A stretch of DNA of 64,000 bases from an uncultured Candidatus Saccharibacteria bacterium (GCA_964489135.1 CAZAXK010000001.1:20615-84614), one strand, 5' to 3'. Numbered from the stretch's first letter, positions 1,019-63,600 are shown. The notes: generated by a model not told the origin, from the sequence alone. Made by a program: numbers and translations.

Positions 1019-2278
1019 ATGTTTGGAATTCCAATAGTGATTTGGGAGAATCTGTGGCTCGCCTTCAAAATTGTTTGGAAACTTGCCCCCATTTGGCTCC
1101 CTTTGGCTTTTGTGGTGGCTGCCGCCAAGGCATGGCTTGCGTACAAGCGAGCTGATTATTGGAACAACAAGCTTGGTTCCTTGGTACTCGAGATCAAACT
1201 CCCGCGCGACGTCTTTAAGTCGCCTCTAGCAATGGAGCTCGTCTTAAACCAGCTACATCAGACCGCGGATGAAGGCAACAACTATTTCAAGTATTGGAAG
1301 GGTCAGACCAGAAGCTGGTTCTCACTCGAGCTCGTCTCTTTCGGCGGGGAGATACATTTTTATATTTGGACCAGAAAGAAATACCGCAACGGCCTCGAGG
1401 CCTACCTTTACTCGCAATACCCCGGCGTCGAAGTGCGTGAGGTCGAAGACTATACCAAAAACTACTATTACGACCCGAACCAGCACAAGTTGTTTGCTTG
1501 TCAGTGGAAACTAGATGACCCAGACCCATATCCGATCAGCACCTATGTAGATTACGGCTTGGACAAGGACCCCAAAGAAGAGTACAAGATCGACCCGATG
1601 ACAAGCCAGCTCGAGTTCCTTGGTACTTTGCGCAAAGGCCACACGATTTGGATACAGATCATTGTGCGTGCTCACAAGAAGGAAAAAAGACTTTTGCCTA
1701 TCAACAAATGGTTTAGTGAATTTGCTCTGTTCGAGGAAGTCGACTCATGGAAGGCAGATGCCAAGGCGGAAATAGATAAAATCAGAAAAGCGCTACAGCC
1801 AGAAGGTAACACCTTCCCACGCCTCGCCACTAAGGGCGAGCAAGACAAGATGGCGGCTCTTGAACGCAGTATTGGTAAGCTCGGATTTGATGTAACCATA
1901 CGCTCTCTTTATTTTGCAAAAAAAGAAGAATATGACGCCGTCTATTTGGGTGGAATGCTCGGTAGCTTCAAGCAATACTCAGCTCTCGGCTACAATAGCT
2001 TCAAGGGTGCTGGCTGGAGCAGTACTTATAGCAACCCACCCAAAGACTGGTGGAAGCCAGATCAAGCAACACTCCTGAAGCGTGCTTTTGATGAATACAA
2101 GCTTCGCCGATTCTTCTTCTCGCCATATCGAGGCAAGTGGTATTACAGCGAACCTTTCGTCCTGAATTCCGAAGAGTTGGCCACGATCTACCACCTACCA
2201 GGGGCCGTCGCCGGCACACCAACGCTCGACCGAGTACCTTCGCGCAAGGTCGATGCTCCTTACAATCTGCCTATATGA
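1019..2278 (+). CDS. hypothetical membrane-anchored protein (N-terminal hydrophobic segment), function unknown
   Basis: 419-aa ORF with TATAAT (1007-1012) exactly 6 nt upstream of the ATG. N-terminal TM-like segment; no recognisable catalytic motif. ATGA stop/start overlap with mltG. Confidence 0.5.
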   Translation: MFGIPIVIWENLWLAFKIVWKLAPIWLPLAFVVAAAKAWLAYKRADYWNNKLGSLVLEIKLPRDVFKSPLAMELVLNQLHQTADEGNNYFKYWKGQTRSWFSLELVSFGGEIHFYIWTRKKYRNGLEAYLYSQYPGVEVREVEDYTKNYYYDPNQHKLFACQWKLDDPDPYPISTYVDYGLDKDPKEEYKIDPMTSQLEFLGTLRKGHTIWIQIIVRAHKKEKRLLPINKWFSEFALFEEVDSWKADAKAEIDKIRKALQPEGNTFPRLATKGEQDKMAALERSIGKLGFDVTIRSLYFAKKEEYDAVYLGGMLGSFKQYSALGYNSFKGAGWSSTYSNPPKDWWKPDQATLLKRAFDEYKLRRFFFSPYRGKWYYSEPFVLNSEELATIYHLPGAVAGTPTLDRVPSRKVDAPYNLPI

Positions 2279-3402
2279 TGAATTTTCTTGCTACACTTGC
2301 GCGTTTCTTGCATCTGAGAAGTGCAAAAGTTCGACTGACCGATCCGATCAAAGACCGAGTTTTGTATTTGCGCGACCGGATGGCCATTCATCCGGAAGTT
2401 ATCGTCTTACGTTTACGCTTGCTCAAACTATTCGCGCCCCTAGGCAATCACTTCTTCAAGATTCTTCTGGTTCTTGCTTTAATCATTCCTTTCTATACCA
2501 GCTTTTATATTTTCTCTTGGCGAGCACCAAGTGACTTTCCCGAGCATGCGTTGGTCACGGTAGGCAGAGGAGACAGCTTTGGCCAAATTGCCGAGGCATT
2601 CGAAAAAGCTCATGTAGTAAGGTCGGCTTCGTGGCTCAAATTCTTCGTCCGTATTACTGGTGGCGACCGGCGGGTGGTCACCGGAGATTATTATTTCCCA
2701 GAGCCGGTCAGCTTATTCCGAGTTATCCGCGTTCTCCACAAAGGAGAATTTGGGCTGATCGCAGAAAGAGTTACCTTGCATGAAGGTCTAAATTCTTTTG
2801 AGATGGCGGAGATCTTGAGCCAGTCGTTACCAGCCTTCGCAAAAGAAGAATTTTTGAAGGAAGTGACAGACAATGGTTATGAGGGCACCCTCTTTCCTGA
2901 CACCTATTTCTTTATGCCCAATACAAGACCCAAGGACATTATTCTAGCGATGCGAGAGAATTTTGCTCGCCAAATAAAGCCCTACGAGGAAGACATCGCA
3001 AAATCCGGTAAGACCCTGCAAGACCTGATAATCATGGCCTCCATAATAGAAGACGAGGCAAATAAAAATATTGAATCGAGAAGAATCGTCTCTGGTATTT
3101 TATGGAAGCGGATCCAGAAAGGAATGCCTCTACAAGTTGATGCGCCGTTCAAGTATTACAACGGCAAACATTCTTACACCCTTACCGCCGAAGATTTGAA
3201 AGAAGACCACCCTTACAATACCTATGTTCGCAAAGGCTTGCCCCCGACCCCGATCGACAACCCGAGCATCGATTCTATTCGCGCCGCGATTGCCCCAACT
3301 CACACCGACTATTTGTATTTTATGTCTGACAAACAAGGCAACATGTACTACGCCAAGGATTTTGAGGGCCACCAAGCCAATAGAGAAAAGTACTTGCGCT
3401 AG
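2275..3402 (+). CDS. mltG: endolytic murein transglycosylase MltG (YceG-like)
   Basis: Start at MMNFLATL (ATG 2275 overlaps the upstream stop as ATGA). N-terminal TM followed by a YceG domain with the characteristic YYF...GTLFPDTY...P..I.NPS motifs. Confidence 0.85.
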   Translation: MMNFLATLARFLHLRSAKVRLTDPIKDRVLYLRDRMAIHPEVIVLRLRLLKLFAPLGNHFFKILLVLALIIPFYTSFYIFSWRAPSDFPEHALVTVGRGDSFGQIAEAFEKAHVVRSASWLKFFVRITGGDRRVVTGDYYFPEPVSLFRVIRVLHKGEFGLIAERVTLHEGLNSFEMAEILSQSLPAFAKEEFLKEVTDNGYEGTLFPDTYFFMPNTRPKDIILAMRENFARQIKPYEEDIAKSGKTLQDLIIMASIIEDEANKNIESRRIVSGILWKRIQKGMPLQVDAPFKYYNGKHSYTLTAEDLKEDHPYNTYVRKGLPPTPIDNPSIDSIRAAIAPTHTDYLYFMSDKQGNMYYAKDFEGHQANREKYLR

Positions 3403-3439: not shown

Positions 3440-4513
3440 ATGAAGAAGGTTTTTGTTGGATTATCTGGCGGCGTAGATTCGGCCGTTTCTGCCGGTCTTC
3501 TAAAAGAGGCCGGTTTTGACGTGACTGGAGTTTTTATCAAGGCTTGGACCCCCGATGGCTACCCCTGTACATGGAAGGAAGACCGACGTAGTGCAATGCG
3601 AGCTGCAGCGGTGCTTGATATTCCTTTTCACACTCTCGACCTAGAGAAGGAGTACAAACGCGATGTGGTGGACTATATGATCAGAGAATACAAAAACGGA
3701 CGTACTCCAAATCCGGATGTGATGTGCAACAAAGAAATAAAATTCGGCGGATTTTTGAAGTGGGCAAGAGAGCAGGGTGCAGACTTTGTCGCCACGGGAC
3801 ACTACGCACAACGTGCTCCCTCCCCTGATCAAGGGGAGGGTGGGGTGGGGTTAAAGGAAGGGGCGGACAAGAACAAGGATCAGACCTATTTTCTTTGGAC
3901 CTTGAGTCAGGATCAATTGCGGCACACGCTTTTTCCAATCGGACATTTGCAAAAAAGTGAGGTGCGCAAATTGGCCGAAAAATTCGGCCTACCGCAAGCC
4001 ACTCGCAAAGATAGTCAGGGATTATGTTTCTTGGGGCAGATCGACATGAAAGAATTTCTCCATGATTTTATCGACTCAAAGGAAGGTAAGGTTCTCGATC
4101 TAACAGGTCAAGAGATTGGTAGCCACGACGGAGCAGTGCTTTATACTTTGGGCGAGCGACACGGGCTTAGGATCTTTAACCAGACAGACCAAAGCAAGCC
4201 GTTTTATGTGGTAAGCAAAGATATCAAGAGCAACACCATCACCGTGGCACCCCAACCTACATTTCCTGCAGCGGACATCACGCACACCTACCAACTCGAA
4301 CAGATCAATTGGATATCTGGTAAGCCACCACGAGAGAATATTGAATGTCGCTACCGTTATCGACAGCCCAAAATACCCTGTCGGGTAAACGGCGACACAG
4401 TAACATTTGAATCCCCACAACTTATCGCCTCGGGGCAATCGATTGTCTTCTACCTGCCAAAGCAAGGGCAAGACGGGGATGAAATCTGCCTAGGAGGAGC
4501 GATTATTTCGTGA
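3440..4513 (+). CDS. mnmA: tRNA-specific 2-thiouridylase MnmA
   Basis: N-terminal PP-loop SGGVDSAV. Downstream ATGHYA and CNKEIKF regions typical of MnmA. Contains a short Gly/Glu-rich insertion (GEGGVGLKEG). Confidence 0.9.
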   Translation: MKKVFVGLSGGVDSAVSAGLLKEAGFDVTGVFIKAWTPDGYPCTWKEDRRSAMRAAAVLDIPFHTLDLEKEYKRDVVDYMIREYKNGRTPNPDVMCNKEIKFGGFLKWAREQGADFVATGHYAQRAPSPDQGEGGVGLKEGADKNKDQTYFLWTLSQDQLRHTLFPIGHLQKSEVRKLAEKFGLPQATRKDSQGLCFLGQIDMKEFLHDFIDSKEGKVLDLTGQEIGSHDGAVLYTLGERHGLRIFNQTDQSKPFYVVSKDIKSNTITVAPQPTFPAADITHTYQLEQINWISGKPPRENIECRYRYRQPKIPCRVNGDTVTFESPQLIASGQSIVFYLPKQGQDGDEICLGGAIIS

Positions 4514-4567: not shown

Positions 4568-5404
4568 ATGCAAGATAACATCCTAATAACCAAAGCGACC
4601 GGCGAGCGCGAACCGTTCGATCCGGACAAGCTAAGGCAGTCTCTAACTCGTGCTCATGCTCCCAAAGAAGTAACCGAGAGAATACTTGAGAGAATTTTGC
4701 TCGGCCTCAAAGACGGGATGACCACGAAAGACATTTACACTCACGCCTTTGAGCTTCTAGCAAGCGAACACAAACCGACAGCGGTGCGATACTCTCTACG
4801 CAAAGCGCTACTTGCCATGGGCCCAACTGGATTTCCTTTTGAAAAACTGATTTCGGAAATTCTACGGGTAAAAGGTTACGAGACAACGACCGAATTTACC
4901 GCCCTCGGCCGATGCGTCGAACACGAGATCGACATCACAGCATGGAACGACGAGAAGCTTATAATGATAGAGGCCAAATTCCACAACGAATACGGTTTGA
5001 AGTCGGACCTCAAGACAGTGCTCTATGTTGATTCGCGTTGGGACGACGTACGGGAGAAGGAGTTTGATTTTGGACACAAAAGGAAGCTCGACGAGGGCTG
5101 GCTCGTGACCAACACCAAATTTACCGATCAAGCCATCAAATACGCTAAGTGCAAAAACATGAAGCTCATTGGTTGGGGCTATCCGAAGGAGGGAAATCTC
5201 CAAGACTTGATCGAGGAAACAGGTCTTCACCCCATAACAGTGCTTAACACCTTACGTCTTGAGGAACAGAGAGAACTCATGGCTCTCGGCCTTATTCATA
5301 TTTTGCAGATCAAAGAGAACCCCGATGTTGCCAGACAGGTCATCCGAAGTAGCGACGCTCTCTCTGCAACTCTCAGCGAAATAGATTTGATACTAGGAGT
5401 ATAA
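4568..5404 (+). CDS. ATP-cone domain fused to Mrr-like (restriction-endonuclease fold) nuclease domain protein
   Basis: N-terminus (ILITKATGEREPFDPDKLRQSL...) resembles the ATP-cone of NrdR/RNR. The central region (FEKLISEILRVKGYETTTEF..GRCVEHEIDITAW..LIMIEAKFH) matches the Mrr_cat / PD-(D/E)XK restriction endonuclease core. Confidence 0.7.
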   Translation: MQDNILITKATGEREPFDPDKLRQSLTRAHAPKEVTERILERILLGLKDGMTTKDIYTHAFELLASEHKPTAVRYSLRKALLAMGPTGFPFEKLISEILRVKGYETTTEFTALGRCVEHEIDITAWNDEKLIMIEAKFHNEYGLKSDLKTVLYVDSRWDDVREKEFDFGHKRKLDEGWLVTNTKFTDQAIKYAKCKNMKLIGWGYPKEGNLQDLIEETGLHPITVLNTLRLEEQRELMALGLIHILQIKENPDVARQVIRSSDALSATLSEIDLILGV

Positions 5405-5409
5405 AGCTA

Positions 5410-6144
5410 ATGGCCTACTACAAGAAAAAACTTTATGACCCAGAGGCGAAGGAAGCTTTTCGAATAAGTCGATCCAAGATCGATTTGTTTTTACAATGTC
5501 CGCGCTGTTTTTACCTCGACCGACGCATCGGCGTCTCTCGACCTCAGGGATTCCCATTCAACCTCAATAGTGCGGTAGATATTTTGCTCAAAAAAGAATT
5601 CGACCTTCATCGCAAACAGCACACCCCGCACCCTCTTATGGAAAGCTACGGAGTGGACGCTGTGCCTTTCGAACACGAAATGATGGATACTTGGCGAGAC
5701 ACATTTAAGGGAGTGGAATATTTTCATGAGCCGACCAACTTCGTAGTCTTTGGAGGAGTAGACGATGTTTGGAAAAACGGAGACGGCGAACTCATCGTCG
5801 TAGACTACAAAGCTACTAGCAAAGATGGGGAAGTTGGGCTCGACGCTGAGTGGCAAGACGGATACAAACGACAAATGGAAGTGTATCAGTGGCTACTTTC
5901 GAAAAATGGATTCAAAGTAAGCAACACTGGATATTTCGTCTATGCCAATGGTCAACGCGACCGAGAAGCCTTTGACGGCAAGCTCGAGTTTGATATCAAG
6001 CTCATACCTTACGAGGGTAAACCTGATTGGATAGAAGACACACTCAAAGATATGAAAAAATGCTTGGATGGCGAGCTGCCAAAATCTAATCCAAATTGTG
6101 AGTATTGCGCATTTGTGAGGGATCGGATCAATGCCGAAAAATAA
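5410..6144 (+). CDS. PD-(D/E)XK nuclease, Cas4/RecB-like with 4-Cys cluster
   Basis: N-terminal CPRCFY and C-terminal CEYCAF cysteine pairs flank a D..ELIVVDYK nuclease core, as in Cas4/AddB-type Fe-S nucleases. Six bp downstream of the ATP-cone nuclease gene. Confidence 0.7.
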   Translation: MAYYKKKLYDPEAKEAFRISRSKIDLFLQCPRCFYLDRRIGVSRPQGFPFNLNSAVDILLKKEFDLHRKQHTPHPLMESYGVDAVPFEHEMMDTWRDTFKGVEYFHEPTNFVVFGGVDDVWKNGDGELIVVDYKATSKDGEVGLDAEWQDGYKRQMEVYQWLLSKNGFKVSNTGYFVYANGQRDREAFDGKLEFDIKLIPYEGKPDWIEDTLKDMKKCLDGELPKSNPNCEYCAFVRDRINAEK

Positions 6145-6160
6145 TTTGGAGAATGAAGTA

Positions 6161-6249
6161 AAAACGGGATGTCCTCTGAGAAAAGTCTGGCCTCAGAGAG
6201 TTCGTCTCTGAGGAGACCCGAGGACTTTTGGAAGAGGATATCCCGTTTT
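6161..6249. other. 89-nt nested inverted-repeat element (17-bp outer stem, internal 9-bp hairpin with GTTCG loop); terminator or MITE-like element
   Basis: AAAACGGGATGTCCTCT (6161-6177) pairs with AGAGGATATCCCGTTTT (6233-6249) with one G-U wobble. Inside, CCTCAGAGA-GTTCG-TCTCTGAGG (6191-6213) is a perfect hairpin, and AAAAGTC/GACTTTT form a 7-bp pair. Confidence 0.4.
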
Positions 6250-6263
6250 AGATAAATATATAG

Positions 6264-6515
6264 ATGAAATCATTTAAAGAAAAAGTTTTTGAGGTAGTGA
6301 GGAAAATACCGAAAGGTAAGACTTTGACCTACAAGCAAGTGGCAGAGAAAGCGGGTTCGGCTAAAGCATTTAGAGCAGTCGGTAATATTTTGAATGGGAA
6401 CTTTAATCCAAAGATACCTTGCCATAGAGTAGTAAGGAGCGATGGTAAACCGGGAGGATATAATAGGGGAGCGGAACAAAAAATAAAAGTATTAAAAAAA
6501 GAAAAAGCGATATGA
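6264..6515 (+). CDS. ogt: methylated-DNA-protein-cysteine methyltransferase (Ogt/MGMT) DNA-binding/active-site domain protein, 83 aa
   Basis: Contains the conserved PCHRVV active-site motif plus the helix-turn-helix context (TYKQVAEKAGSAKAFRAVGNILNGN). Only the C-terminal domain is present. Confidence 0.75.
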   Translation: MKSFKEKVFEVVRKIPKGKTLTYKQVAEKAGSAKAFRAVGNILNGNFNPKIPCHRVVRSDGKPGGYNRGAEQKIKVLKKEKAI

Positions 6516-7147
6516 AAAAGTTAGACACAGCAGAAGATAGAAGAGAAGAGATGAAAAAGATTCGCGACGAGGTAGTCGCGCTTAAAGAGTCGCCACTATA
6601 CAAATTTCGAGTAGAGAGCAAAAACTTGCCGGTGATAGGCGAAGGGAGTCATTTCGCAAAAATTATGTTCGTAGGCGAAGCGCCAGGGAGAAACGAGGCA
6701 AAGACCGGTCGACCTTTTTGCGGAGCTGCGGGCAAAATACTTGATTGGCTTTTGGAAGGCGCAGGTATCAAAAGAGAAGAAGTGTACGTCACAAATATTG
6801 TGAAAGATCGCCCACCCCAAAACCGCGACCCATTGCCCGAGGAGATACAAATATACGGGCCATTCCTCGATCGACAAATCGAGATCATACAACCCCAAGT
6901 GATAGCGACCCTAGGGCGCTACGCCATGGGCTACATCATGCAAAAGTTTGACCTCTCGCTCGAACTCGAGCCGATAGGCAAAGCACACGGCAAAACTTAT
7001 GCAGTGCCCCGCGAAGCTTTAGCGAAGTGGGGATGGCAAGACCGCGAGATCAAAATAATCCCTCTCTACCACCCAGCAGTCGCCGTATACAACTCCCACA
7101 CCAAAGACATCCTCGCCAAAGACTTCCAAATTTTGAAAAATATTTAA
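6512..7147 (+). CDS. uracil-DNA glycosylase, family 4
   Basis: Motifs GEGS..., IMFVGEAPG.NE...G.PFCGAAG..L and HPA are typical of family-4 UDG. Overlaps the ogt stop by 4 nt. Confidence 0.85.
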   Translation: MKKLDTAEDRREEMKKIRDEVVALKESPLYKFRVESKNLPVIGEGSHFAKIMFVGEAPGRNEAKTGRPFCGAAGKILDWLLEGAGIKREEVYVTNIVKDRPPQNRDPLPEEIQIYGPFLDRQIEIIQPQVIATLGRYAMGYIMQKFDLSLELEPIGKAHGKTYAVPREALAKWGWQDREIKIIPLYHPAVAVYNSHTKDILAKDFQILKNI

Positions 7148-7167: not shown

Positions 7168-7205
7168 GTACTGCGACAAATCTGACGGCCGTCAAATCTG
7201 TCGCA
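7168..7205. terminator. bidirectional hairpin between convergent genes (near-palindrome CTGCGACAAATCTGACGG/CCGTCAAATCTGTCGCAG)
   Basis: Imperfect 18-bp palindrome (16 of 18 positions pair) lying between the + gene ending at 7147 and the - gene ending at 7223. Confidence 0.45.
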
Positions 7206-7222
7206 GGTATTGAAGAGAATAT

Positions 7223-9764: not shown

Positions 9765-10229
9765 ATGAAGGATTGTGATCATACAAGTGTCGGGATGCTT
9801 GTCTACAATGAGGATAAACTCCTTTTAATAGAGCGCGCCAGATTTCCGTTTGGTTTTGCCATTCCAGCTGGACACGTAGATCATGACAAATCATACGAAG
9901 AGGCAGCGGTCAGAGAATTGAAGGAAGAGGTTGGTCTAGAAGTAAAAAGTCTGACTCTTGTGACAGAGGGTAAAAAAACAAATCCTTGCAGAAGAGAGGG
10001 AGGTACGTGGCACTACTGGAAAATATACAAGGTGGAATTTGAAGGCGGGCTTGAAAGAAGCGCTGACGAAACAAAACAGGCCAATTGGTACGACAAGTCC
10101 AAAATCCAAGAATTAGCCACGAAAACAGCTCAGTATTACGCTAAAGAAATTTCTGAAGAGGAGTGGGCAAAAAATCCTGGGTTAGAACCAGTAATGTATG
10201 ATTGGTTTAAAGAACTCAATATAATTTAA
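9765..10229 (+). CDS. NUDIX hydrolase
   Basis: Nudix box GHVDHDKSYEEAAVRELKEEVGLEV (GX5EX7REUXEEXGU). Confidence 0.85.
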   Translation: MKDCDHTSVGMLVYNEDKLLLIERARFPFGFAIPAGHVDHDKSYEEAAVRELKEEVGLEVKSLTLVTEGKKTNPCRREGGTWHYWKIYKVEFEGGLERSADETKQANWYDKSKIQELATKTAQYYAKEISEEEWAKNPGLEPVMYDWFKELNII

Positions 10230-10234
10230 TAGCA

Positions 10235-10696
10235 ATGAAAATCACCATTTGTGGCAGTATTGCATTTTATAAGGAAATGGAGGAAACGCGAGACAAGCTA
10301 ATTAAGCTTGGACACGAAGTCAAAATCCCTGAGCTCGCCATGGAAGTCCCCGAAGAATATGGGGGAGGAAAGAAGGTATACTTTGGTCAATATATAGAAG
10401 ATAACGGAGGGATAGACGCCTTCAAGCCAGAGCACAAGTTGTGGAGTTTGAAGGAAAGCGCAATCAAGGACCATTTCGAAAAGATTGATTGGGCTGATGC
10501 AGTACTTATAGTTAATCCCGAAAAAAGAGGAGTATCTGGTTATGTAGGAGGAAATACTTTGATTGAAATTGGTGTAGCATTCTACACAAAAAAGAAAGTA
10601 TTTATTTTGAATGACGTGTCAGCTACTCTTTCATATAAACAGGAGATACTCGGTATGAAGCCAATTGTCCTAAATGGCGATTTGGGTAAAATATAA
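10235..10696 (+). CDS. nucleoside 2-deoxyribosyltransferase-like (Ndt/DNPH1-fold) protein
   Basis: MKITICGS...ADAVLIVN...GYVGGNTLIEIGVAFYTKKKVFIL resembles the Rossmann-like Ndt/Rcl family with a conserved Glu in the GxTxxEIGxA context. Six nt after the NUDIX gene. Confidence 0.5.
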   Translation: MKITICGSIAFYKEMEETRDKLIKLGHEVKIPELAMEVPEEYGGGKKVYFGQYIEDNGGIDAFKPEHKLWSLKESAIKDHFEKIDWADAVLIVNPEKRGVSGYVGGNTLIEIGVAFYTKKKVFILNDVSATLSYKQEILGMKPIVLNGDLGKI

Positions 10697-10698
10697 AA

Positions 10699-11472
10699 AT
10701 GAAATTAATTACACTAAACACTTGGGGTGGGAGAGCGGGCAAAGAAGGATTGCTCCAATTTTTTGCAGAGCACAGGAATATCGATATATTCTGTCTTCAA
10801 GAAATATGGTCAGCGCCATATGAGCACCTAGAAGGACAACTCGCCGGAGGACTGCGGATCGATAATTCTAGGGTTATGACGTACGGAATGCAAGAAATCT
10901 CTGGCCTTCTTGCGGATGAGTTCAACGCATTCTTCAACCCTAATCATGGCGATCATTATGGCCTTATGATGTTGGTACGCAAGAATCTTAACGTAGTGGC
11001 AAAGGGAGAAGTGTTTGTATACAAAGAAAAAGGTTACGTGGAAACATGGGATGTCGGTGATCATGCAAGAAATATTCAATACTTAACGTTGAATATTAAC
11101 GACCAACCACTTACAGTTATGAATTTCCACGGTTTATGGAACGGGAAGGGAAAAATAGACTCGGAAGATAGAATAGATCAATCGAAAAAGATAGTCGACT
11201 TTCTCAAGTCATTGAATGGAGATTGCGTTTTTGCCGGCGACTTTAATTTGTTGCCAGACACAGAGAGTATGAAAATAATTGAATCTGCGGGTCTCAAGAA
11301 TCTTGTGAGAAATTACGGTATAACTTCGACCAGAACCTCGATTTACAAGAAGCCAGAAAAGCATGCTAGCTACGTGCTCGTTTCTGATAATATAGAGGTA
11401 AAAGATTTTAGAGTATTACCAGACGAAGTATCAGACCACTCACCACTATTTTTAGATTTTGAGTTAAAATAA
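10699..11472 (+). CDS. endonuclease/exonuclease/phosphatase (EEP) family protein
   Basis: LNTWGG...CLQE N-terminal motif, GDFN and SDHSPL C-terminal motifs of the EEP fold. Three nt after the previous gene. Confidence 0.75.
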   Translation: MKLITLNTWGGRAGKEGLLQFFAEHRNIDIFCLQEIWSAPYEHLEGQLAGGLRIDNSRVMTYGMQEISGLLADEFNAFFNPNHGDHYGLMMLVRKNLNVVAKGEVFVYKEKGYVETWDVGDHARNIQYLTLNINDQPLTVMNFHGLWNGKGKIDSEDRIDQSKKIVDFLKSLNGDCVFAGDFNLLPDTESMKIIESAGLKNLVRNYGITSTRTSIYKKPEKHASYVLVSDNIEVKDFRVLPDEVSDHSPLFLDFELK

Positions 11473-26701: not shown

Positions 26702-28357
26702 ATGACACAGAAGGAAGCTCTGCAAATATTGAAGACTGGACGCAACGTCTTTCTTACCGGCGCGGCCGGTAGCGGCAAAACCCACACCTTGCGGGAATAT
26801 ATTGGCTATCTGCGCGACCTCGGCGCAAGCTTCGGCCTATCGGCCTCAACCGGTATTGCTGCTACCCACATGGGTGGCATCACGGTCCATTCTTGGAGCG
26901 GAATCGGTATCAACGATTATTTGAGCAAAAAGGAGGTCGAGGAGATTGCCGAAAAGAGCCACATTCGTCGCAATATCGCCGATACCGACGTTTTGATCAT
27001 CGACGAGATATCGATGTTGCACCACTATCAACTAGACATGATCGACGCAGTGGTCAGGAAAGTCAAAGGAGTGGATGCGCCTTTCGGCGGAATGCAAGTG
27101 GTTTTCTCCGGCGACTTTTTCCAACTGCCACCGGTAGGCAAGAGGGATACACCAACCCTCTTTGGCTATCATTCAAAGGTTTGGCAAGAAATGGATATCA
27201 AGATCTGCTACCTCGACGAACAGCACCGACAGAACGATTCTGACTACCTAAAAATATTGAACTCCATCCGCAACAACTCAGTCACTCCCGAGGTTATCGA
27301 GACGCTCCAAAGTCGCTTCAACCAAAGTATCGACGGATTTGGCGAGCCGACCAAACTCTACTCTCACAACAAAGATGTCGATTACGAAAACGAACTTGAG
27401 CTCAGAGGTATTTCCGGCAAAACTTTCGAATATACAATGGAGTTGCGAGGCCCGAGGAAACTCGTGGAGATATTGAAGAAGAGCTGTCTTGCACCCGAGG
27501 CGCTCCGAATCAAGAAAGGGGCAAAGGTCATGTTCGTCAAAAACAAGTTTGAAGCCGGTTTTGTAAATGGCACACTCGGCATAGTTGAGGATTGCGACCG
27601 AGAGCATATCAAAGTCCTAACGGTCGACGGTCGACACATCGACGTAGAACCCGAGAGTTGGAATATCGAGGAAGACGGCAAAGTCAGAGCAAGTGTCAGC
27701 CAATATCCGCTCCGACTAGCGTGGGCAATAACGATCCACAAAAGCCAAGGCATGTCGCTTGATTGCGCCCAAATCGACCTTGCCCACCCCTTCGAAAAGG
27801 GCATGGGCTACGTCGCACTCTCGCGGTTGCGCTCACTAGGTGGACTTTCACTCCTAGGACTCAATCAAAAAGCACTTGAGGTTAGTGGAGAGGTGCTTGA
27901 ATGGGACAGACATTTTAGAAAATTGTCGGATGAGAACAGTCGCAAGATATCGCGACTGGAAGATCGACTACGTACCATGCAAGATGATTGGGAAAAGAAG
28001 GTTGGCTTGAATGCCAACAAAAAAACCAAGAAAGTCAGAGTAGACACAGCCCTAGAAACTCTTGCGCTTCTGCAAGCGGGCTTTGATATAAGCGAAATCG
28101 CTACTATGCGCAACAAAAAGCCAGAGACCATCCTCTCCCACATCGAAAAACTGAAAGAAAAGGGGATGGTCAAAAACAAAGATTTGGCCCAACTCAAAGA
28201 CAAGATCTCACTTGCCAAATTTCGAGCTATTTCGAGCGCCTTTCATAAAGTGGGCATAGAGCAAGGCGAGCGTAATTATCGCCTTTCCAAAGCCAAAGAC
28301 CTCCTCGGCAACACCTACTCTTTCGACGACCTACGCTTGGTCCGTTTGTTTTTATAG
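26702..28357 (+). CDS. PIF1/RecD-like ATP-dependent DNA helicase with C-terminal HTH_40-like domain
   Basis: Walker A GAAGSGKTH, DEISM Walker B, QLPPV motif, and a C-terminal helix-turn-helix region (ETLALLQAGFDISEIATMRNKKPETILSHIEKL) typical of bacterial Pif1 homologs. Confidence 0.8.
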   Translation: MTQKEALQILKTGRNVFLTGAAGSGKTHTLREYIGYLRDLGASFGLSASTGIAATHMGGITVHSWSGIGINDYLSKKEVEEIAEKSHIRRNIADTDVLIIDEISMLHHYQLDMIDAVVRKVKGVDAPFGGMQVVFSGDFFQLPPVGKRDTPTLFGYHSKVWQEMDIKICYLDEQHRQNDSDYLKILNSIRNNSVTPEVIETLQSRFNQSIDGFGEPTKLYSHNKDVDYENELELRGISGKTFEYTMELRGPRKLVEILKKSCLAPEALRIKKGAKVMFVKNKFEAGFVNGTLGIVEDCDREHIKVLTVDGRHIDVEPESWNIEEDGKVRASVSQYPLRLAWAITIHKSQGMSLDCAQIDLAHPFEKGMGYVALSRLRSLGGLSLLGLNQKALEVSGEVLEWDRHFRKLSDENSRKISRLEDRLRTMQDDWEKKVGLNANKKTKKVRVDTALETLALLQAGFDISEIATMRNKKPETILSHIEKLKEKGMVKNKDLAQLKDKISLAKFRAISSAFHKVGIEQGERNYRLSKAKDLLGNTYSFDDLRLVRLFL

Positions 28358-45980: not shown

Positions 45981-47975
45981 ATGCTCTGGTTAGTTGTAGT
46001 GTTTTTTGCAACCTTCCCGGGGCTCGCCTTTGGCCAGCTCCAAACAAGTAACAAGATCCAGCTGACTGACTTGCAGTGCCTTGCGACACTCACGGAAACA
46101 CAATACCGTGGGACGCAAGGATTGTGGGCCAATGTGCCCCGTGAGCAGGTCAGCACGAAGCCCGAGCTTTTCGGGGCAATCCTGCCCGGCTCGGCGAAGT
46201 TTGAGTGGATCGAGCCCAACCTCCCTTACAAGGGAACGGTGGCTCGCGCCAAAATCGAAGATATCGGTGCCGACAGATGGGTCGTCTACGTCCCCCAAAA
46301 GGGACTTGGATGCGACTTACTACAGAAAAGTGGTGGAAAAAAGGTGGTTGAGTCAGCGCGCGTAAGCGCGGTCGTGTACTCGACGCAAACCCAAACACCA
46401 GCCGTGTCTGCGGCAACGCAGCAGAGGTTGGTGCAGGTGGGACTCGCTCCCATCCTACCACTTACGGCAACATCCTCATCGACGACCCTTCGGGGTATCG
46501 TCGTTGTGGATTCCGGTGTCCAGGTAGGTAATCCGCAGCTTCATCAGCGTGTGGATCCCACCAACTCCGCTTCGTTCGTCGGAGGCACCGCCTTCGACGA
46601 CAGGGCCGGACACGGGACGGAGGTCGCTGAGATCATCGCCGGTCGCACGGCAGGGTTCGTGTCATCTACACCGATAATTTCTTATCGAGTGCTCGACACA
46701 GTTCCGCGTGCCGACGGCGAAGGTAAAATTCTGGTGGGGTCGGAAGCACTTGTGCTCCGGGCCCTGCTCCGTTTGCACTTGCTCCCGTATGAGCGACTGG
46801 TCGTGAATATGTCGTTGCAATTCTGGGGCGACCCAGAAATGTGGCGACTTGCGATCGGATCGCTCAAAGATCGAGCCACCTTCGTGGTCTCGGCTGGGAA
46901 CGCCTCTAGTGGGGTTGAGCCAAATTCAAATTGGCTCCCCTGCTCGCTCTCGAACCTCGAGAATTTGATCTGCGTTGGAGGCACCGATGGTGCTGACCGC
47001 AAGATCGAGTTCTCAAACTTCGGGCCGGCCGTCGAGATCGGCGCTCCGGCTGTCGTCGAGACATCTCTCGGCACGGTGGCCGGCACATCTTTCTCCGCCC
47101 CGCAAGTCGCGGGAACAGTCGGGCTCATCCTTGAGCAGACTAGCGAGAATTTCTCGCCGGCAATGCTCAAGAGCTTCGCGCTTGGCGGACGCTTCTCGGG
47201 ATACCTGCAAGGTGTCTTCGAGGAGCCAGTGGTGCTGAACGCCACTTCCGCCCTCGCAATCGCTCGCCGGTGCGCATCCGGCAAATGTTCCTCCTCTTCC
47301 CTCTCCCCTTTCTCAATAACTGGGGTTGAGGGCACTTGGTCCGGATCTTCCAAGTTCACGTACAGTGACTTGGTGACGATCCGCGGCACGTCACTCGTGG
47401 ACCGCGTCTACGAGCAAGGAGAAGTTGGGACCATGCCCCTTCGGGTCATGGTCAACGGTTACCATGAGGAAGTAACCGTGCTGAGGGCCACGCCCGAAGC
47501 GATCGAGATCGTCCTCCCGTCGATGTTCCGAGGTTCGGTCTGGGCGCAAGCTCAGGGTCCGGCCCTCGGAGGCGAGAGCATCCTTGCTCTCGTCCGACTC
47601 GTCGACGGGGTCCCCGTGCCAAGCACGGCGACAATCGCCACCCGCTTCCGCCCGGAGCTTGGATCCCCCGCCGTGGGGCTCATCGCTCGCGCGGACGGCA
47701 CCACGGCCGGACCGGACAATCCGATCCGCGCCAACGAAACCATCCAAATCTTCCTATCGGGCCTCGAGGCGTTCACCGCCTCCCAGGTACCGGTGGAAGT
47801 AGAGTTCGGAGGAGTCTCTCAAAAGCTCCTCCCGGCGGCCACCCCCATACAAGGGGTGTACGTGGTATTCGTTGAGACCCCTAAGGTCTCCGGAGCCTAC
47901 GGGCTCACGGGACGGGTCTCCGCCAGTAGTTCTTCTTTCGACTTCGGCGTCAACTATGACGCCGGGGTTGAATAA
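45981..47975 (+). CDS. secreted subtilisin-like serine protease (peptidase S8) with C-terminal extension; GC-rich, likely horizontally acquired
   Basis: Signal peptide MLWLVVVFFATFPGLAFG. Catalytic triad contexts VVDSGV (Asp), HGTEVAEIIAG (His), GTSFSAPQVAG (Ser). Sampled 60-nt windows give about 55-68% GC, against about 42-45% in flanking genes. Confidence 0.85.
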   Translation: MLWLVVVFFATFPGLAFGQLQTSNKIQLTDLQCLATLTETQYRGTQGLWANVPREQVSTKPELFGAILPGSAKFEWIEPNLPYKGTVARAKIEDIGADRWVVYVPQKGLGCDLLQKSGGKKVVESARVSAVVYSTQTQTPAVSAATQQRLVQVGLAPILPLTATSSSTTLRGIVVVDSGVQVGNPQLHQRVDPTNSASFVGGTAFDDRAGHGTEVAEIIAGRTAGFVSSTPIISYRVLDTVPRADGEGKILVGSEALVLRALLRLHLLPYERLVVNMSLQFWGDPEMWRLAIGSLKDRATFVVSAGNASSGVEPNSNWLPCSLSNLENLICVGGTDGADRKIEFSNFGPAVEIGAPAVVETSLGTVAGTSFSAPQVAGTVGLILEQTSENFSPAMLKSFALGGRFSGYLQGVFEEPVVLNATSALAIARRCASGKCSSSSLSPFSITGVEGTWSGSSKFTYSDLVTIRGTSLVDRVYEQGEVGTMPLRVMVNGYHEEVTVLRATPEAIEIVLPSMFRGSVWAQAQGPALGGESILALVRLVDGVPVPSTATIATRFRPELGSPAVGLIARADGTTAGPDNPIRANETIQIFLSGLEAFTASQVPVEVEFGGVSQKLLPAATPIQGVYVVFVETPKVSGAYGLTGRVSASSSSFDFGVNYDAGVE

Positions 47976-56979: not shown

Positions 56980-59900
56980 TTATTGCGACGACAAGCTTTT
57001 TATCCGCGCTCTAGTCCCCGGCCCAACATTGCCATACCCAGTCGTCTGCGGACTACCACTCGAGACGATACCTTCTGCTCTTTGGAAAGATTTGACCGCA
57101 GCTTCAGTGAGGCGACCAAAAAATCCAATTGCATTACCCGGAGCTAAGTATCCTTTTGATATGAGGAAGTTTTGGAGCACGGTGACATCAGCGCCTTGTG
57201 AGCCGTATGAGAGATTGCGAGAGAGGTTTACGCCTCCGGTCGCAGAAGTGACCCCACCTGATGCAGTAGTGACAGATCCCGAGGAAGACGAGCTTTGGCC
57301 AGAACCAACAGAAAGTATTGCAATTCTTGCCCGAGTTTTTGCACCCGCAAGGCCGTATCCAGTCGTAGCGGCACTTCCGCTCGAGACTATGCCTTCCGCT
57401 CTTTGGAAAGATTTGACTGCCGCTTCAGTCAGTCGGCCGAAGAAGCCGATCGCGTTGCCTGGAGCGAGGTATCCCTTGGAGATGAGGAAGTTTTGCAAAT
57501 CAGTCACATCTTTACCCTCCATACCATATGCAAGGGTGCGTGATAGGACCACACCTATACCCACCGCATTACCAGGGACTGTGGCTGTGGAAGTAGGAGC
57601 TGTGATCGTTGCAGTAGTTCTCCCTGATGAAGATCCACCACCACCAGAAGATCCTCCGCCCGAGGAAGAAGTCGTGGTAACGACGGTAGTGCCACCACCG
57701 CCGCCGCCACCTCCACCTGAACCACTCGATGCTGTGCCTGAGTTGCCTTCGGCGTTAGTGGTAAATGACACAGTTACCGGGTCGGAGTAGTCGCCGTATT
57801 CATCTTTCAAAAAGATCGAGTAGTAATATTTGGTCAATGGCTTAACCGCCTCATCATGATAGCCAAGCTCCGAGCAGGCAAGGCTTGCGACCAAGCTTGT
57901 CTCTTCGGGTACAGTGATGAACCCAGTTTCGGATCTATAAACTTTAATGTTGGCGCACAATTCGTAATCAATTTTATCCCACTTGAGAATAACTGATCCT
58001 TCAGAAGCGGTGACATTCAGAATTTTTGGTGGTTTAGATGGTCTTTGCAAAGTAGAGAACGGCACAACGACAGAGACCGCTTCTCCCCCACCACTCGCTC
58101 TTGCCCTTACGCGTAAGTTGTAACTTTTACCAGGTTGCAATCCGCGCAAATCAATAACATGGTCCTTCGCATAGACAAAAGAAAATGTGGTCGAAGAAGT
58201 AAAGCTCTGGTCAGTACTCCATTCGGCCTTGACGACGGCCTGAGAATCTAGATGCACGGCGACACTAGCAGACTTATATTCTGGATCAATTGTTGGGTTA
58301 GACAAAAAGACAGGAGTCAGCGCAGAAACCGGAGGCGTAACAGCATTCACTGCGACAGAAGCACTCGCCGAAGCCGACCCACCGTTACCAGAACAGGAAA
58401 TGTTGTAGGTAGTGTTAGCGGTTGGAGCAACAGAAGCCGAACCCGACGTACTTGTCTGGTTTGTCCACGAGGCCGAACAACTTGAAGCATTGGTTGAGGA
58501 CCAGCTCAACGTAACACTGTTGCCTTGATCTACAGAAGTCGGGTTAGCGCTAAGGGTTACTGTTGGAGCGGTGTTTGTCGGAGGATTGGTTGGATTTGGA
58601 ACGGTAGTAGTCGCAATAGTACCGGTACGCGGGAGGAAAGCCCACTTTGGACTCCCGTTAAATCGATCTTGATAATCGATATGGCTCTTAAACCAGTCCC
58701 AAGCTGTTTGTCCAGAAATTCCATTCCAAGAAAAATTGGTTAGGAAACTTGAAGCGCCATAACTTAGTATTGAGTACCCGCCTTCATAGTCGTGATCATT
58801 CACAAAGTCGGTGGTACGCGTCTGATACTGCGAGAGCATGGCGTTCTTTACCTCGGCCCAAGTCTGGAAGTAATTGCCGTTCTTATCAGTTGAAGGCGTG
58901 CGGTAATTTTGGAGGAAATAAGGACTGTAAGTCGGATCGAATACTTGGCCAAGCAGATTCTGAGCAAAACGTTCTCGAAGTGGTCGAATTTGGGTAAAGC
59001 CCAACTCATCCAAGTGTCCAAGCACTACATGCAAGAACGCATTTTGGAATGGGATGCTTACGTTATTGGCTTTTGTAAGATCGGCTTCGCCGTCAGCCCC
59101 GTATCCCTTAGACCAGAAGTTGAGAGCATTAGGAAATTTACCGAATTTATTTTTGCCGATACACCAGATCGATGTTTCGGTGTAGGCGTTAAACGGATTT
59201 GTAGTACATGGACTATAATAGCTTCCGTTTTGGATATCAAATGAACCTTCACGCACAGCGATATTGTTGATCATCTTGTCGGTATAGTATTTCTTTTCGG
59301 GAGTGCTGTCCGGCGCCAAAAACGCCGCTTCGCCCAAGCCACGAAAACTCCACGCTACTCCACGATCCTCGTTGCCGATCAAACCTTTGCCAAAGATACG
59401 ATTATTTGGATTTGTGGTATGAAGTATATAAGAGGCTTCGTTGTACATACCTTCGAGGAAGTACCAGTCGCCCGTAAATAGGTATGGCAAGTAGAAGCTA
59501 TTTGGGAAATGATTTACGTCTACGATCCAGCCCACATTGGAAGTCTTATCGACAGCAAACTGATAATCGCCATCTTGGTCTGAACTCTTACTTATATTTG
59601 AGTAAGTTTTTGGGCGAGCATCAAGAGACATTGACCTGCCGAACATGTCATCGGACATTCCAGTGACGAAAAGCTTGCCTGTTTTCGACTCACGGGCAAA
59701 CATAGGAATCATGTTTGAAGCATTACCGTTGCCCACTAGCTCTTGGAACAATTCTGGTACTCTCGAATCGGAAGTCTTCATTGCATACAAGTAGACCATC
59801 TGCCATGTGGTAAAGAGACCGATGTCAGGACGCTGACCTGCATCAAATTGGTTTTTCCAGATCTGACCTTGTACCGCGCTCGAATCATTTGTACCCGGTT

Positions 59901-63092: not shown

Positions 63093-63482
63093 TCAAGAAT
63101 AAAGGCGGAGAAATCCGTTTTTTATTTTAGCTATATCGGCCTCGTCCAAAGATCCCATTTTTTCGTACATTCTCAAATGACTGAGAACTCTTATTTGGGC
63201 TAGGTTAGCAACCGCTTCTTTCCCTTGAAAAGATATCTCCACATACCACGTTCCTTTCTTGTCACTGGTCGATAGTGGTATCCCAAGAAATCCATTTGCG
63301 CTTAATTTTTTGTAAATATAAACCGGTCGCGAAAAAGGCCTCCCCTTGCCATTTACTTCAACGCCGACATTTTCGCCAATAGCACACCACCAAATCTCCC
63401 CTTCCTTAAATAAGGGTGGCTTATTATCTGCATTGTGTAGTTTCTCTTTCAAACCAAACCACTCGAGAAATCTCTTAATCAT
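63093..63482 (-). CDS. MazF/PemK-like endoribonuclease toxin-fold protein (no adjacent antitoxin gene)
   Basis: GEIWWCAIGENVGVEVNGKGRPFSRPVYIY...GFLGIPLSTS...VANLAQIRVLS follows the MazF/PemK pattern G(D/E)I..vdf...G.E..g.RP.vV...P.T...dQi. Start at ATG 63482 (MIKRF). The longer ORF-track start would overlap the tRNA. Confidence 0.55.
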   Translation of the reverse strand: MIKRFLEWFGLKEKLHNADNKPPLFKEGEIWWCAIGENVGVEVNGKGRPFSRPVYIYKKLSANGFLGIPLSTSDKKGTWYVEISFQGKEAVANLAQIRVLSHLRMYEKMGSLDEADIAKIKNGFLRLYS

Positions 63483-63529
63483 TAATAAAATTGTAGCATC
63501 AATAAATGCCAGTTGGAAACAAATTAATG

Positions 63530-63600
63530 TGCGACTAGGGAGAATCGAACTCCCGTCTAATGCTTGGGAAGCACTCATTCTGCCACTAAACTATAGTCGC
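63530..63600 (-). tRNA. tRNA-Gly (anticodon CCC), 71 nt, CCA not encoded
   Basis: Minus-strand sequence GCGACTATAGTTTAGTGGCAGAATGAGTGCTTCCCAAGCATTAGACGGGAGTTCGATTCTCCCTAGTCGCA. 7-bp acceptor stem GCGACTA/TAGTCGC; T-arm GGGAG-TTCGATT-CTCCC; anticodon stem AGTGC/GCATT with loop TTCCCAA. Confidence 0.8.

Follow-up and report, generated by a model that had tools for sequence, protein, structure and literature searches.

What four neighbouring genes for DNA-acting enzymes are doing together is the question raised by one segment of a 64,000-nucleotide stretch of DNA from an uncultured Candidatus Saccharibacteria bacterium (GCA_964489135.1 CAZAXK010000001.1:20615-84614; hereafter, the window). The genes, all on the + strand, are g1 (4568-5404, 278 aa), encoding an ATP-cone/AF1548-type PD-(D/E)xK endonuclease with a helix-hairpin-helix (HhH)-like C-terminal domain; g2 (5410-6144, 244 aa), a stand-alone nuclease of the Cas4/RecB family (PF12705) with a 2+2 arrangement of cysteines; g3 (6264-6515, 83 aa), a single-domain O6-alkylguanine-DNA alkyltransferase of the Ogt/Ada C-terminal type (PF01035); and g4 (6512-7147, 211 aa), a family-4 uracil-DNA glycosylase (UDG; TIGR00758) without the four Fe-S cysteines. 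A preliminary description of the segment called it a nuclease and repair island and left it between a repair operon and a two-gene defence system. The reading preferred here, at a probability of roughly 0.55, is that the segment is vertically inherited core chromosome of the Paceibacterota with four genes of DNA metabolism in series, that it is neither a mobile island nor an obligate multi-gene system, and that g1 is a nucleotide-gated nuclease of DNA turnover.

The gene order and spacings given in that description were recovered, with 5 nt (5405-5409) measured between g1 and g2, 119 nt (6145-6263) between g2 and g3, and a 4-nt ATGA overlap of g3 and g4. All of its domain calls (ATP-cone, Mrr_cat, PDDEXK_1, DNA_binding_1 and UDG) were right by Pfam profile search. 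It is the functional grouping of the genes that has to be revised.

Inherited synteny around g1

The comparison of neighbourhoods used one genome per GTDB species. At least 572 genomes have a relative of g1; the best 80 were taken for locus comparison by tblastn with the window proteins, and the content of the slot was scored in the 62 loci with at least 4 kb of downstream sequence. The homologues with a named source belong to Paceibacterota, Zambryskibacteria, Taylorbacteria, Parcubacteria and the 'Patescibacteria group', and many third-party annotation (TPA) assemblies are labelled generically 'uncultured Candidatus Saccharibacteria'.

The 80 Paceibacterota species genomes share one backbone: LeuRS, a sigma factor, DUF8128, YceG, MnmA, g1, optionally g2, g3 and the UDG gene, and AlaRS. 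The gene directly upstream of g1 in the window is mnmA, for the tRNA 2-thiouridylase (3440-4513, +; Pfam tRNA_Me_trans, 251 bits). The same order is found in 79 of the 80 species loci, and mnmA and g1 overlap by 4 nt in the gene calls of L001-L003 and L006. mnmA is the syntenic anchor of g1, its context rather than its functional partner. The coupling of the two genes was considered as a sign of an RNA target for g1 and rejected, adjacency within inherited synteny being no evidence.

What lies between g1 and AlaRS varies. The commonest content is g1 and UDG (25/62 loci), followed by g1, g2 and UDG (16/62), all four genes (9/62), g1 alone (8/62) and g1 with g2 (2/62); g1 with g3 and UDG, and g1 with g2 and g3, occur at a single locus each (1/62). 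g1 stands without g2 in 34 of the 62 evaluable species loci, and clustering of neighbours places g2 in the g1-UDG slot at 36 loci. The chance adjacency that the preliminary description had kept in view, with genes never linked in relatives, is not what is found: the genes are linked in related genomes, and since the adjacency recurs in related species it is not peculiar to this genome. The recurrence is inherited synteny with a variable middle, not a fixed four-gene unit. A multi-pass membrane protein of ~150 aa also occurs in the g1-UDG slot, as gene +1 or +2 after g1, in 13 species loci (L028, L031-L033, L036, L038, L040, L047, L050, L053, L066, L073 and L086); it reads as MgtC/SapB-like, a label given by eye from its sequence and not by profile. 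Its presence in 13 species shows that genes other than those of DNA repair can occupy the slot.

Mean identity to the window proteins, taken over the 26 loci that have all compared genes, is 54% for g1, 67% for g2 and 67% for g4. The corresponding values for MnmA, AlaRS and YceG are 58%, 50% and 50%. The identities of g1, g2 and g4 are on a par with those of MnmA and AlaRS and therefore point to purifying selection at the housekeeping level.

The surroundings in the window are of the same kind. The upstream flank in the Pfam scan consists of a sigma-70/HARE-HTH protein, a 419-aa open reading frame (ORF), YceG/MltG and MnmA; the 419-aa ORF has no Pfam match in the window, and its counterparts at the syntenic position are DUF8128. 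Downstream are M16 and M29 peptidases, a NUDIX gene and AlaRS. The remainder of the 64 kb holds genes for ribosomal proteins, RpoA, GrpE/DnaK/DnaJ, five further aminoacyl-tRNA synthetases (aaRS), ScpA/B, peptidoglycan enzymes and others, so that the window is almost entirely housekeeping, one MazF-type toxin excepted. "Island" and "two-gene defence system" are thus poor terms for genes that sit inside a vertically inherited housekeeping block of aaRS, sigma, MltG/YceG, MnmA, ribosomal protein, RpoA and DnaK/J genes. The same description had set aside a classical restriction-modification system, and rightly: the ORFs of the window that were scanned with Pfam yielded neither a methyltransferase nor a cas family. 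No array-like direct-repeat family that would indicate CRISPR was found in the 64 kb.

The ATP-cone nuclease and its relatives

The proposed fusion of an ATP-cone to an Mrr-type nuclease core is genuine. Profile searches recover both parts of g1 above their Pfam cut-offs, the ATP-cone at residues 6-74 (4583-4789, +; 33.7 bits, cut-off 25.8) and Mrr_cat (PF04471) at residues 88-201 (4829-5170, +; 38.2 bits, cut-off 21), and the fold of the cone was confirmed. g1 was aligned with homologues in two sets, 20 from the candidate phyla radiation (CPR) and 15 sequences across CPR, Bacteroidota and Chlamydiae. Cone residues K9, G12, E13, E15, F17, K21, L22, T53, I56 and Y57 are invariant in the CPR alignment. 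A G-x-C-x-x-H-E-x-D122 ... E135-x-K137 motif, which in the window protein includes H119-E120-x-D122 ... E135-A-K137, is invariant across the alignments, which also share a conserved C-terminal block, and D122, E135 and K137 are invariant in 20/20 CPR sequences and in the 15-sequence, three-phylum alignment. Invariance of catalytic and of ATP-cone residues extends over CPR, Bacteroidota and Chlamydiae.

The sole significant match in a PDB profile search with g1 is AF1548 of A. fulgidus (1Y88; E 1.6e-35, g1 residues 93-274); NrdR cones were recovered at E ~0.08. AF1548 is an archaeal structural-genomics protein whose function is not known. It was predicted to be a restriction endonuclease with catalytic residues D38/E51/K53 in the Global Ocean Sampling (GOS) paper (PMC1821046), and we infer that D122, E135 and K137 of g1 correspond to these. 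The PD-(D/E)xK core of g1 is homologous to AF1548 and has the D...ExK triad. The AF1548 chain, of 199 aa, aligns from g1 residue 93 on and so has no ATP-cone. At the other end the alignment with 1y88 runs through g1 residue 274 and takes in a helical, HhH-like AF1548-like_C domain at residues ~203-274 (5174-5389, +); PF22357 (AF1548-like_C) is recorded on homologues, and in the Pfam scan of the window's own g1 it fell short of the 0.01 threshold. Fold comparison gave scores of 19.1 for 1y88, 10.5 for NucS, 10.3 for Can2 and 8.9 for NrdR. Short matches to RAD51-paralogue chains (6.5, 58-59 residues aligned) and to Pol X (6.6, 77 residues aligned) may reflect the HhH-like domain of the modelled protein. 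Because this domain resembles 1Y88 and HhH domains, duplex DNA rather than RNA is the expected target of g1.

ATP-cones are characterised as allosteric switches of ribonucleotide reductases (RNRs) and of NrdR. In RNR the cone is joined to the reductase and in NrdR to a Zn-ribbon DNA binder, whereas in g1 it is joined to a nuclease predicted to be catalytically intact. g1 is not NrdR, since TIGR00244 scores 16.7 against a cut-off of 124.65 and the sequence contains no Cys4 Zn-ribbon. With Mrr it shares the Mrr_cat domain, above the Pfam gathering score, but the N-terminal place of the Mrr_N winged-helix reader is taken by the ATP-cone, so that g1 is no orthologue of Mrr; moreover g1 is core, syntenic and strongly conserved where Mrr is patchy, and targeting of modified DNA is unsupported for g1. 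Ligand-gated PD-(D/E)xK nucleases, namely the CARF/SAVED effectors, and ATP-cone switches are each known. From effectors such as Can2, Card1, Cap4 and NucC, g1 differs in having an ATP-cone as sensor instead of CARF or SAVED, in having no cyclase, CRISPR or cyclic-oligonucleotide-based antiphage signalling system (CBASS) partner, and in its housekeeping context.

In an exhaustive HMMER search the number of representative clusters (50% identity) was 1102 with a limit of E<=1e-3 and 424 with E<=1e-30, and the architecture is nearly constant at ~280 aa, most of the 150 listed clusters being 265-300 aa long and matched over most of the query. g1 is thus a member of a compact, widespread and functionally uncharacterised family of ATP-cone/AF1548-type nucleases. 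The architecture is already present in databases, under names such as 'ATP cone domain-containing protein' and 'restriction endonuclease'; the combination of cone and nuclease is unreported in the searchable literature, where no report on such a fusion was found and, for AF1548, the GOS paper alone was relevant.

In the alignment that spans the three phyla, g1 homologues from outside CPR share 36-42% identity with the CPR proteins. Two are plasmid-borne, in Pontibacter actiniarum (41% identity) and Criblamydia sequanensis (37.5% identity), and both head the same operon, which continues with genes for a metallo-beta-lactamase (MBL)-fold hydrolase, a thymidine-phosphorylase (TP)-family protein and ribose-phosphate pyrophosphokinase (Prs). 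The Criblamydia operon is set among phosphoketolase, glycogen phosphorylase and acetate kinase genes, and a Cyclobacterium-type contig has the same four genes followed by PPK2. Coordinates of the operons are L087 1972-6597, L088 6995-11602, L091 7001-13086 and L092 7001-9267. The MBL hydrolase belongs to the beta-CASP/RMMBL nucleases; the phosphorylase is of the archaeal type (TIGR02645, 580 against a cut-off of 434), with the AMP phosphorylase model at 486, below its cut-off of 535; and Prs and PPK2 of the Bacteroidota operon are above their profile cut-offs. PADLOC found nothing at system level among the Bacteroidota operon proteins, and a literature search on the beta-CASP/phosphorylase/Prs operon found nothing relevant. 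The operon is wholly missing in two of the four named Bacteroidota contexts.

The wider non-CPR neighbourhoods were taken from 80 metagenome loci of this clade of relatives (L093-L172), of which 55 were evaluable. A beta-CASP nuclease is the next gene after the g1 homologue in 18/55 and is nearby in 25/55, and beta-CASP, TP-family phosphorylase and Prs occur together in 9 of 41 loci. Other recurrent neighbours are AAA_28 (12), USP (9), CusA (9) and TolC (7). Genes for heavy-metal P-type ATPases, USP, CusA/TolC, type-II GAPDH, phosphoketolase and acetate kinase abound in the islands around these loci; the labels P-type ATPase, USP, CusA, TolC, type-II GAPDH and MgtC were read from motifs and not profiles, save where Pfam tables agree. 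None of mnmA, g2, g3 and g4 stands beside a g1 homologue in the non-CPR loci. The link of g1 to nucleic-acid and nucleotide turnover is real but partial, and is entangled with stress and metal islands.

Genes downstream of g1, their transcription and the wider window

The other three genes belong to known kinds. g2 scores 46.5 bits with PDDEXK_1 (cut-off 22) and lies below the Cas4 cut-offs (PF01930, Cas_Cas4, 19.8 against 22.7; TIGR00372, 40.4 against 65). The proposed stand-alone Cas4/RecB-like nuclease with a 2+2 cysteine cluster holds up well: C30, C33, C230 and C233 are invariant in 18/18 homologues and two CxxC motifs are present in 36/36. D118/D119, D132-Y-K134 and Q155xxxY159 are invariant in the homologue alignment, and these D ... 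(D/E)xK ... QxxxY motifs are accompanied by a fold of the Cas4/AddB/Dna2 type in fold comparison; a PDB sequence search gave no significant match. By its motifs g2 is a solo-Cas4/RecB-family nuclease with a predicted intact D...DxK...QxxxY site and a predicted four-Cys metal or Fe-S site. Canonical Cas4, AddB and Dna2 typically use a 1+3 cysteine spacing (C...CxxCxxxxxC), which g2 does not have, and its sub-threshold Cas4 scores, in a window with neither array nor cas family among the scanned ORFs, do not place it with the CRISPR-associated Cas4 proteins.

Genes for solo-Cas4 are more frequent than expected in CPR, pass down vertically and evolve under ordinary purifying selection (Hudaiberdiev et al. 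2017, PMC5704561). Like the solo-Cas4 of CPR and DPANN described there, g2 is found outside CRISPR loci in a small genome, is inherited vertically and keeps the catalytic motifs and four cysteines; it differs in its PF12705 branch, in falling under the Cas4 cut-offs and in its 2+2 cysteines (CxxC ... CxxC). It has at least 8000 relatives, the best 120 of which are 68-100% identical. g2 also occurs away from g1: another genome has a 68%-identical copy at a different place, not flanked by g1, and thirteen IMG/VR contigs without g1 carry copies at 40-64% identity. On one viral-classified contig (L175, 78-10667; g2 relatives of 62-64% identity) a DNA methylase and a ResIII-type protein come directly before the copy and a Pif1-like helicase after it, with a terminase and a ParB-methylase close by; on another (L178, 18-7015) it follows an Eco57I-type methylase and a 948-aa protein without Pfam match. 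This distribution suggests that g2-like genes are exchanged between CPR chromosomes and their mobile elements.

The 83-aa product of g3 was described as an Ogt active-site domain with PCHRVV, and it scores accordingly: 98.4 bits with DNA_binding_1 (PF01035) and 77.6 with TIGR00589 (cut-off 46.4). In the PDB it matches the Ada C-domain best (1sfe, E 2.6e-14), aligning to residues 96-174 only. The sequence does contain PCHRVV, and PCHR is present in 9/9 g3 orthologues of this slot. It shares the DNA_binding_1 fold and the PCHR active site with the C-domain of Ogt and Ada and lacks the N-terminal Ogt/MGMT domain; full-length equivalog models score far under their cut-offs. In size it resembles the alkyltransferase-like (ATL) proteins, but the acceptor cysteine is kept, and for this reason g3 is predicted to be an active suicide transferase. 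Its family membership suggests direct reversal of O6-alkylguanine.

The family-4 assignment of g4 is likewise secure, with 182 against a cut-off of 125.3 for TIGR00758 (the NCBIfam family-4 UDG model), 113.7 bits for Pfam UDG, and GEAPG and YHPAVA motifs. In the PDB the S. tokodaii UDG scores best (4zbx, E 6e-49), and membership in family 4 points to uracil base-excision as the probable function. Compared with the UDGs of S. tokodaii (4ZBX) and T. thermophilus (1UI0), g4 shares the GEAPG and HPA motifs and the TIGR00758 score but has all four Fe-S cysteines replaced, with A/S/D/Y at the four cysteine columns of 4zbx. In 55 clustered UDG slot sequences (orthologues in L007-L086), L/S/D/Y stand at these columns in 46, 52, 54 and 54, which looks like a clade-wide, cluster-free family-4 UDG. 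An Fe-S-free family-4 UDG is a small further point in the debate on the role of the cluster in such glycosylases.

The 119-nt spacer between g2 and g3 was called structured, and it is. A long imperfect hairpin at 6161-6249 (+; ~89 nt; inverted repeat I2) fills most of it. Its stem is ~37 bp long and its folding energy is -53.4 kcal/mol, whereas shuffled sequences average -27.3 (z -7.64), with 0/200 reaching its value. Flanked by AAAA 5' and TTTT 3', it has the look of a bidirectional-type terminator; the hairpin is probably such an intrinsic terminator, or else a transcript-stabilising stem, between g1-g2 and g3-g4. It would then probably split the four genes of this genome into two transcription units, g1-g2 and g3-g4. 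A scan for consensus promoters and terminators gave counts not above shuffles, and left the long hairpin unflagged given the loop and stem limits of the tool. No Rfam family matches the hairpin in a gathering-threshold scan of the whole window, in which tRNA was the sole match. A repeat of the miniature inverted-repeat transposable element (MITE) or repetitive extragenic palindromic (REP) type was considered and rejected, since the hairpin occurs just once among the window's inverted repeats and its core was not found in the 86 loci searched. In the closest relative, L007, g3 comes directly after g2 and the hairpin is not present. g4 and the M16 peptidase gene converge, with stops at 7147 (+) and 7223 (-), and between them is a 36-nt palindrome at 7171-7206 (unstranded; inverted repeat I4, 90% complementary), likely a bidirectional terminator closing the g3-g4 unit.

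Several further features of the window were recorded. The YceG ORF as listed (GTG at 2137; ORF pair within 1019-3402) overlaps the preceding 419-aa ORF by 142 nt and its Pfam match begins only at residue 140; for both reasons its true start is probably further downstream. The region 9765-11472 holds a NUDIX gene, an unannotated 153-aa ORF and an endonuclease/exonuclease/phosphatase-family gene at a low GC of 0.39 (~0.46 elsewhere). As these are almost never at that position in relatives (0/62, 5/62 and 1/62, respectively), the region may be a lineage-specific insertion. At 26702-28357 a Pif1-like helicase with a C-terminal HTH_40 adjoins a histidine kinase; a Pif1-like helicase is also the neighbour of the g2 homologue on L175. 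A subtilase (Peptidase_S8) gene at 45981-47975 lies in a 2-kb window of GC 0.60, against ~0.46 for the rest, and may be horizontally acquired. The 1707-aa protein encoded at 56980-62103, with Laminin_G_3 and peptidoglycan-binding domains, is possibly a surface or host-interaction protein of an episymbiont-type bacterium. The PemK/MazF-type toxin ORF at 63093-63600 (161 aa as listed), the one gene of toxin or defence character noted in the window, overlaps a tRNA-Gly(CCC) gene on the same strand, and on account of this overlap its real start is probably further downstream.

Turnover, repair, defence or regulation

In the preferred reading g1 would be a DNA endonuclease without sequence specificity, gated by adenine nucleotides through its ATP-cone. 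The HhH-like C-domain would hold duplex DNA and the D122/E135/K137 site would cut it, while adenine nucleotides (ATP versus dATP/ADP) bound by the cone would turn activity on or off, probably by altering the oligomeric state in the manner of RNR and NrdR. Cutting or degradation of DNA would thus depend on the cell's nucleotide or energy status. The role would be housekeeping DNA turnover, in the form of repair-associated cleavage, release of nucleotides for salvage or both, in a salvage-dependent organism, and not restriction of foreign DNA.

Three other explanations were weighed against this one. It is improbable that g1 is a stand-alone defence nuclease, nucleotide-triggered in an abortive-infection or type IV-like manner with g2 as accessory and activated when a phage perturbs the ATP/dATP pools. 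The Mrr_cat core of g1 and weak PADLOC matches to PDC-S02, ZorD and CARF_PDDEXK would fit such a role. PADLOC, however, gave no system-level match for the four proteins; the scores are far under family level (Mrr-like matches at E 4.5e-4 to 1e-2, and generic Cas4 matches), the neighbours are housekeeping genes, and neither defence nor mobile genes adjoin. No g1 relative was found in 50,697 phage records or in IMG/VR viral contigs. The chromosomal position of g1 is fixed between housekeeping genes in 80 species, its conservation, like that of g2 and g4, equals that of aaRS and MnmA, and it has no reader for modified DNA. The proposed g1-g2 pair fails in particular, given the 34 loci with g1 and no g2 and the occurrence of g2 without g1. 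The suggestion that g1 has kept a degenerate nuclease fold and HhH for binding only and is an NrdR-like transcription factor with its cone sensing ATP/dATP is highly improbable. The catalytic H-E-x-D ... E-x-K is invariant in all 35 aligned sequences from three phyla, which is unexpected for a non-catalytic binder. The missing Zn-ribbon and the low TIGR00244 score argue the same way, and outside CPR the gene is co-located with another nuclease and not with nrd genes.

A dedicated DNA-repair module deserves more consideration, though it too is doubtful. Here g1 would be a structure-specific endonuclease comparable to XPF/Hef, Hjc and NucS (PD-(D/E)xK plus HhH), acting with UDG, Ogt and the Cas4-like exonuclease in excision or fork repair, and the ATP-cone would limit cutting to cells with sufficient dNTPs. 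Three genes of DNA-repair type do share one slot, g1 having UDG downstream in 51/62 loci, g2 in 28/62 and g3 in 11/62; some Joint Genome Institute (JGI) annotations read 'Holliday junction resolvase', and conservation is at the housekeeping level. Yet the slot may also be empty or hold the unrelated membrane protein, the closest and most constant neighbour of g1 is a tRNA-modification gene, UDG, Ogt and Cas4 are never near the non-CPR homologues, and in this genome the hairpin divides g1-g2 from g3-g4. The synteny, moreover, is inherited and hence not independent evidence. Between the two functions offered by the preliminary description, repair or maintenance therefore fits the genes better than defence does, while a dedicated operon-level module is not found.

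Several observations weigh against the turnover nuclease itself. Nucleotide binding by g1, its substrate (DNA or RNA) and the direction of its regulation are all predictions. The link to salvage comes from non-CPR homologues only, and from under half of those loci; no beta-CASP, phosphorylase or Prs gene was found near g1 in the window or in the recurrent neighbour clusters of 78 CPR loci. Heavy-metal P-type ATPases neighbour the g1 homologue in 27/55 non-CPR loci, and because they are equally frequent neighbours the turnover association may reflect a stress island and not a pathway. The structural neighbours of g1 include the ligand-activated defence nucleases Can2, Card1 and NucC, and two of its homologues are on plasmids, albeit in metabolic operons (beta-CASP, phosphorylase, Prs, phosphoketolase) and not in defence islands. 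Use of such parts in defence is real elsewhere, since g2 relatives at 62-64% identity adjoin a methyltransferase and ResIII on viral-classified contigs. Finally, inherited synteny amounts to about one evolutionary event, and the placing of UDG, Ogt and Cas4 genes next to g1 therefore lends weak support to a common repair role.

Within the turnover reading, a more specific version is put forward tentatively. g1 may be a catabolic mirror of RNR control, in which low dATP/ATP licenses the degradation of imported, damaged or surplus DNA for salvage. It would be core equipment of nucleotide-salvaging Paceibacterota, and in some Bacteroidota and Chlamydiae would act with the beta-CASP exonuclease, an AMP/nucleoside phosphorylase, PRPP synthetase and PPK2.

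For annotation, the segment carries a warning: nuclease and repair genes lined up with no methyltransferase among them are here inherited housekeeping synteny, not a defence island. The g1 family is amenable to direct test, being small (~280 aa) and soluble, with a solved homologue (1Y88) and genera with cultured members (Pontibacter, Sporocytophaga). A cone-gated nuclease that is core in a major CPR lineage and common in Bacteroidota would, if true, extend the logic of RNR and NrdR from nucleotide synthesis to nucleic-acid breakdown, and could help explain how ultra-small, salvage-dependent bacteria balance their nucleotide pools.

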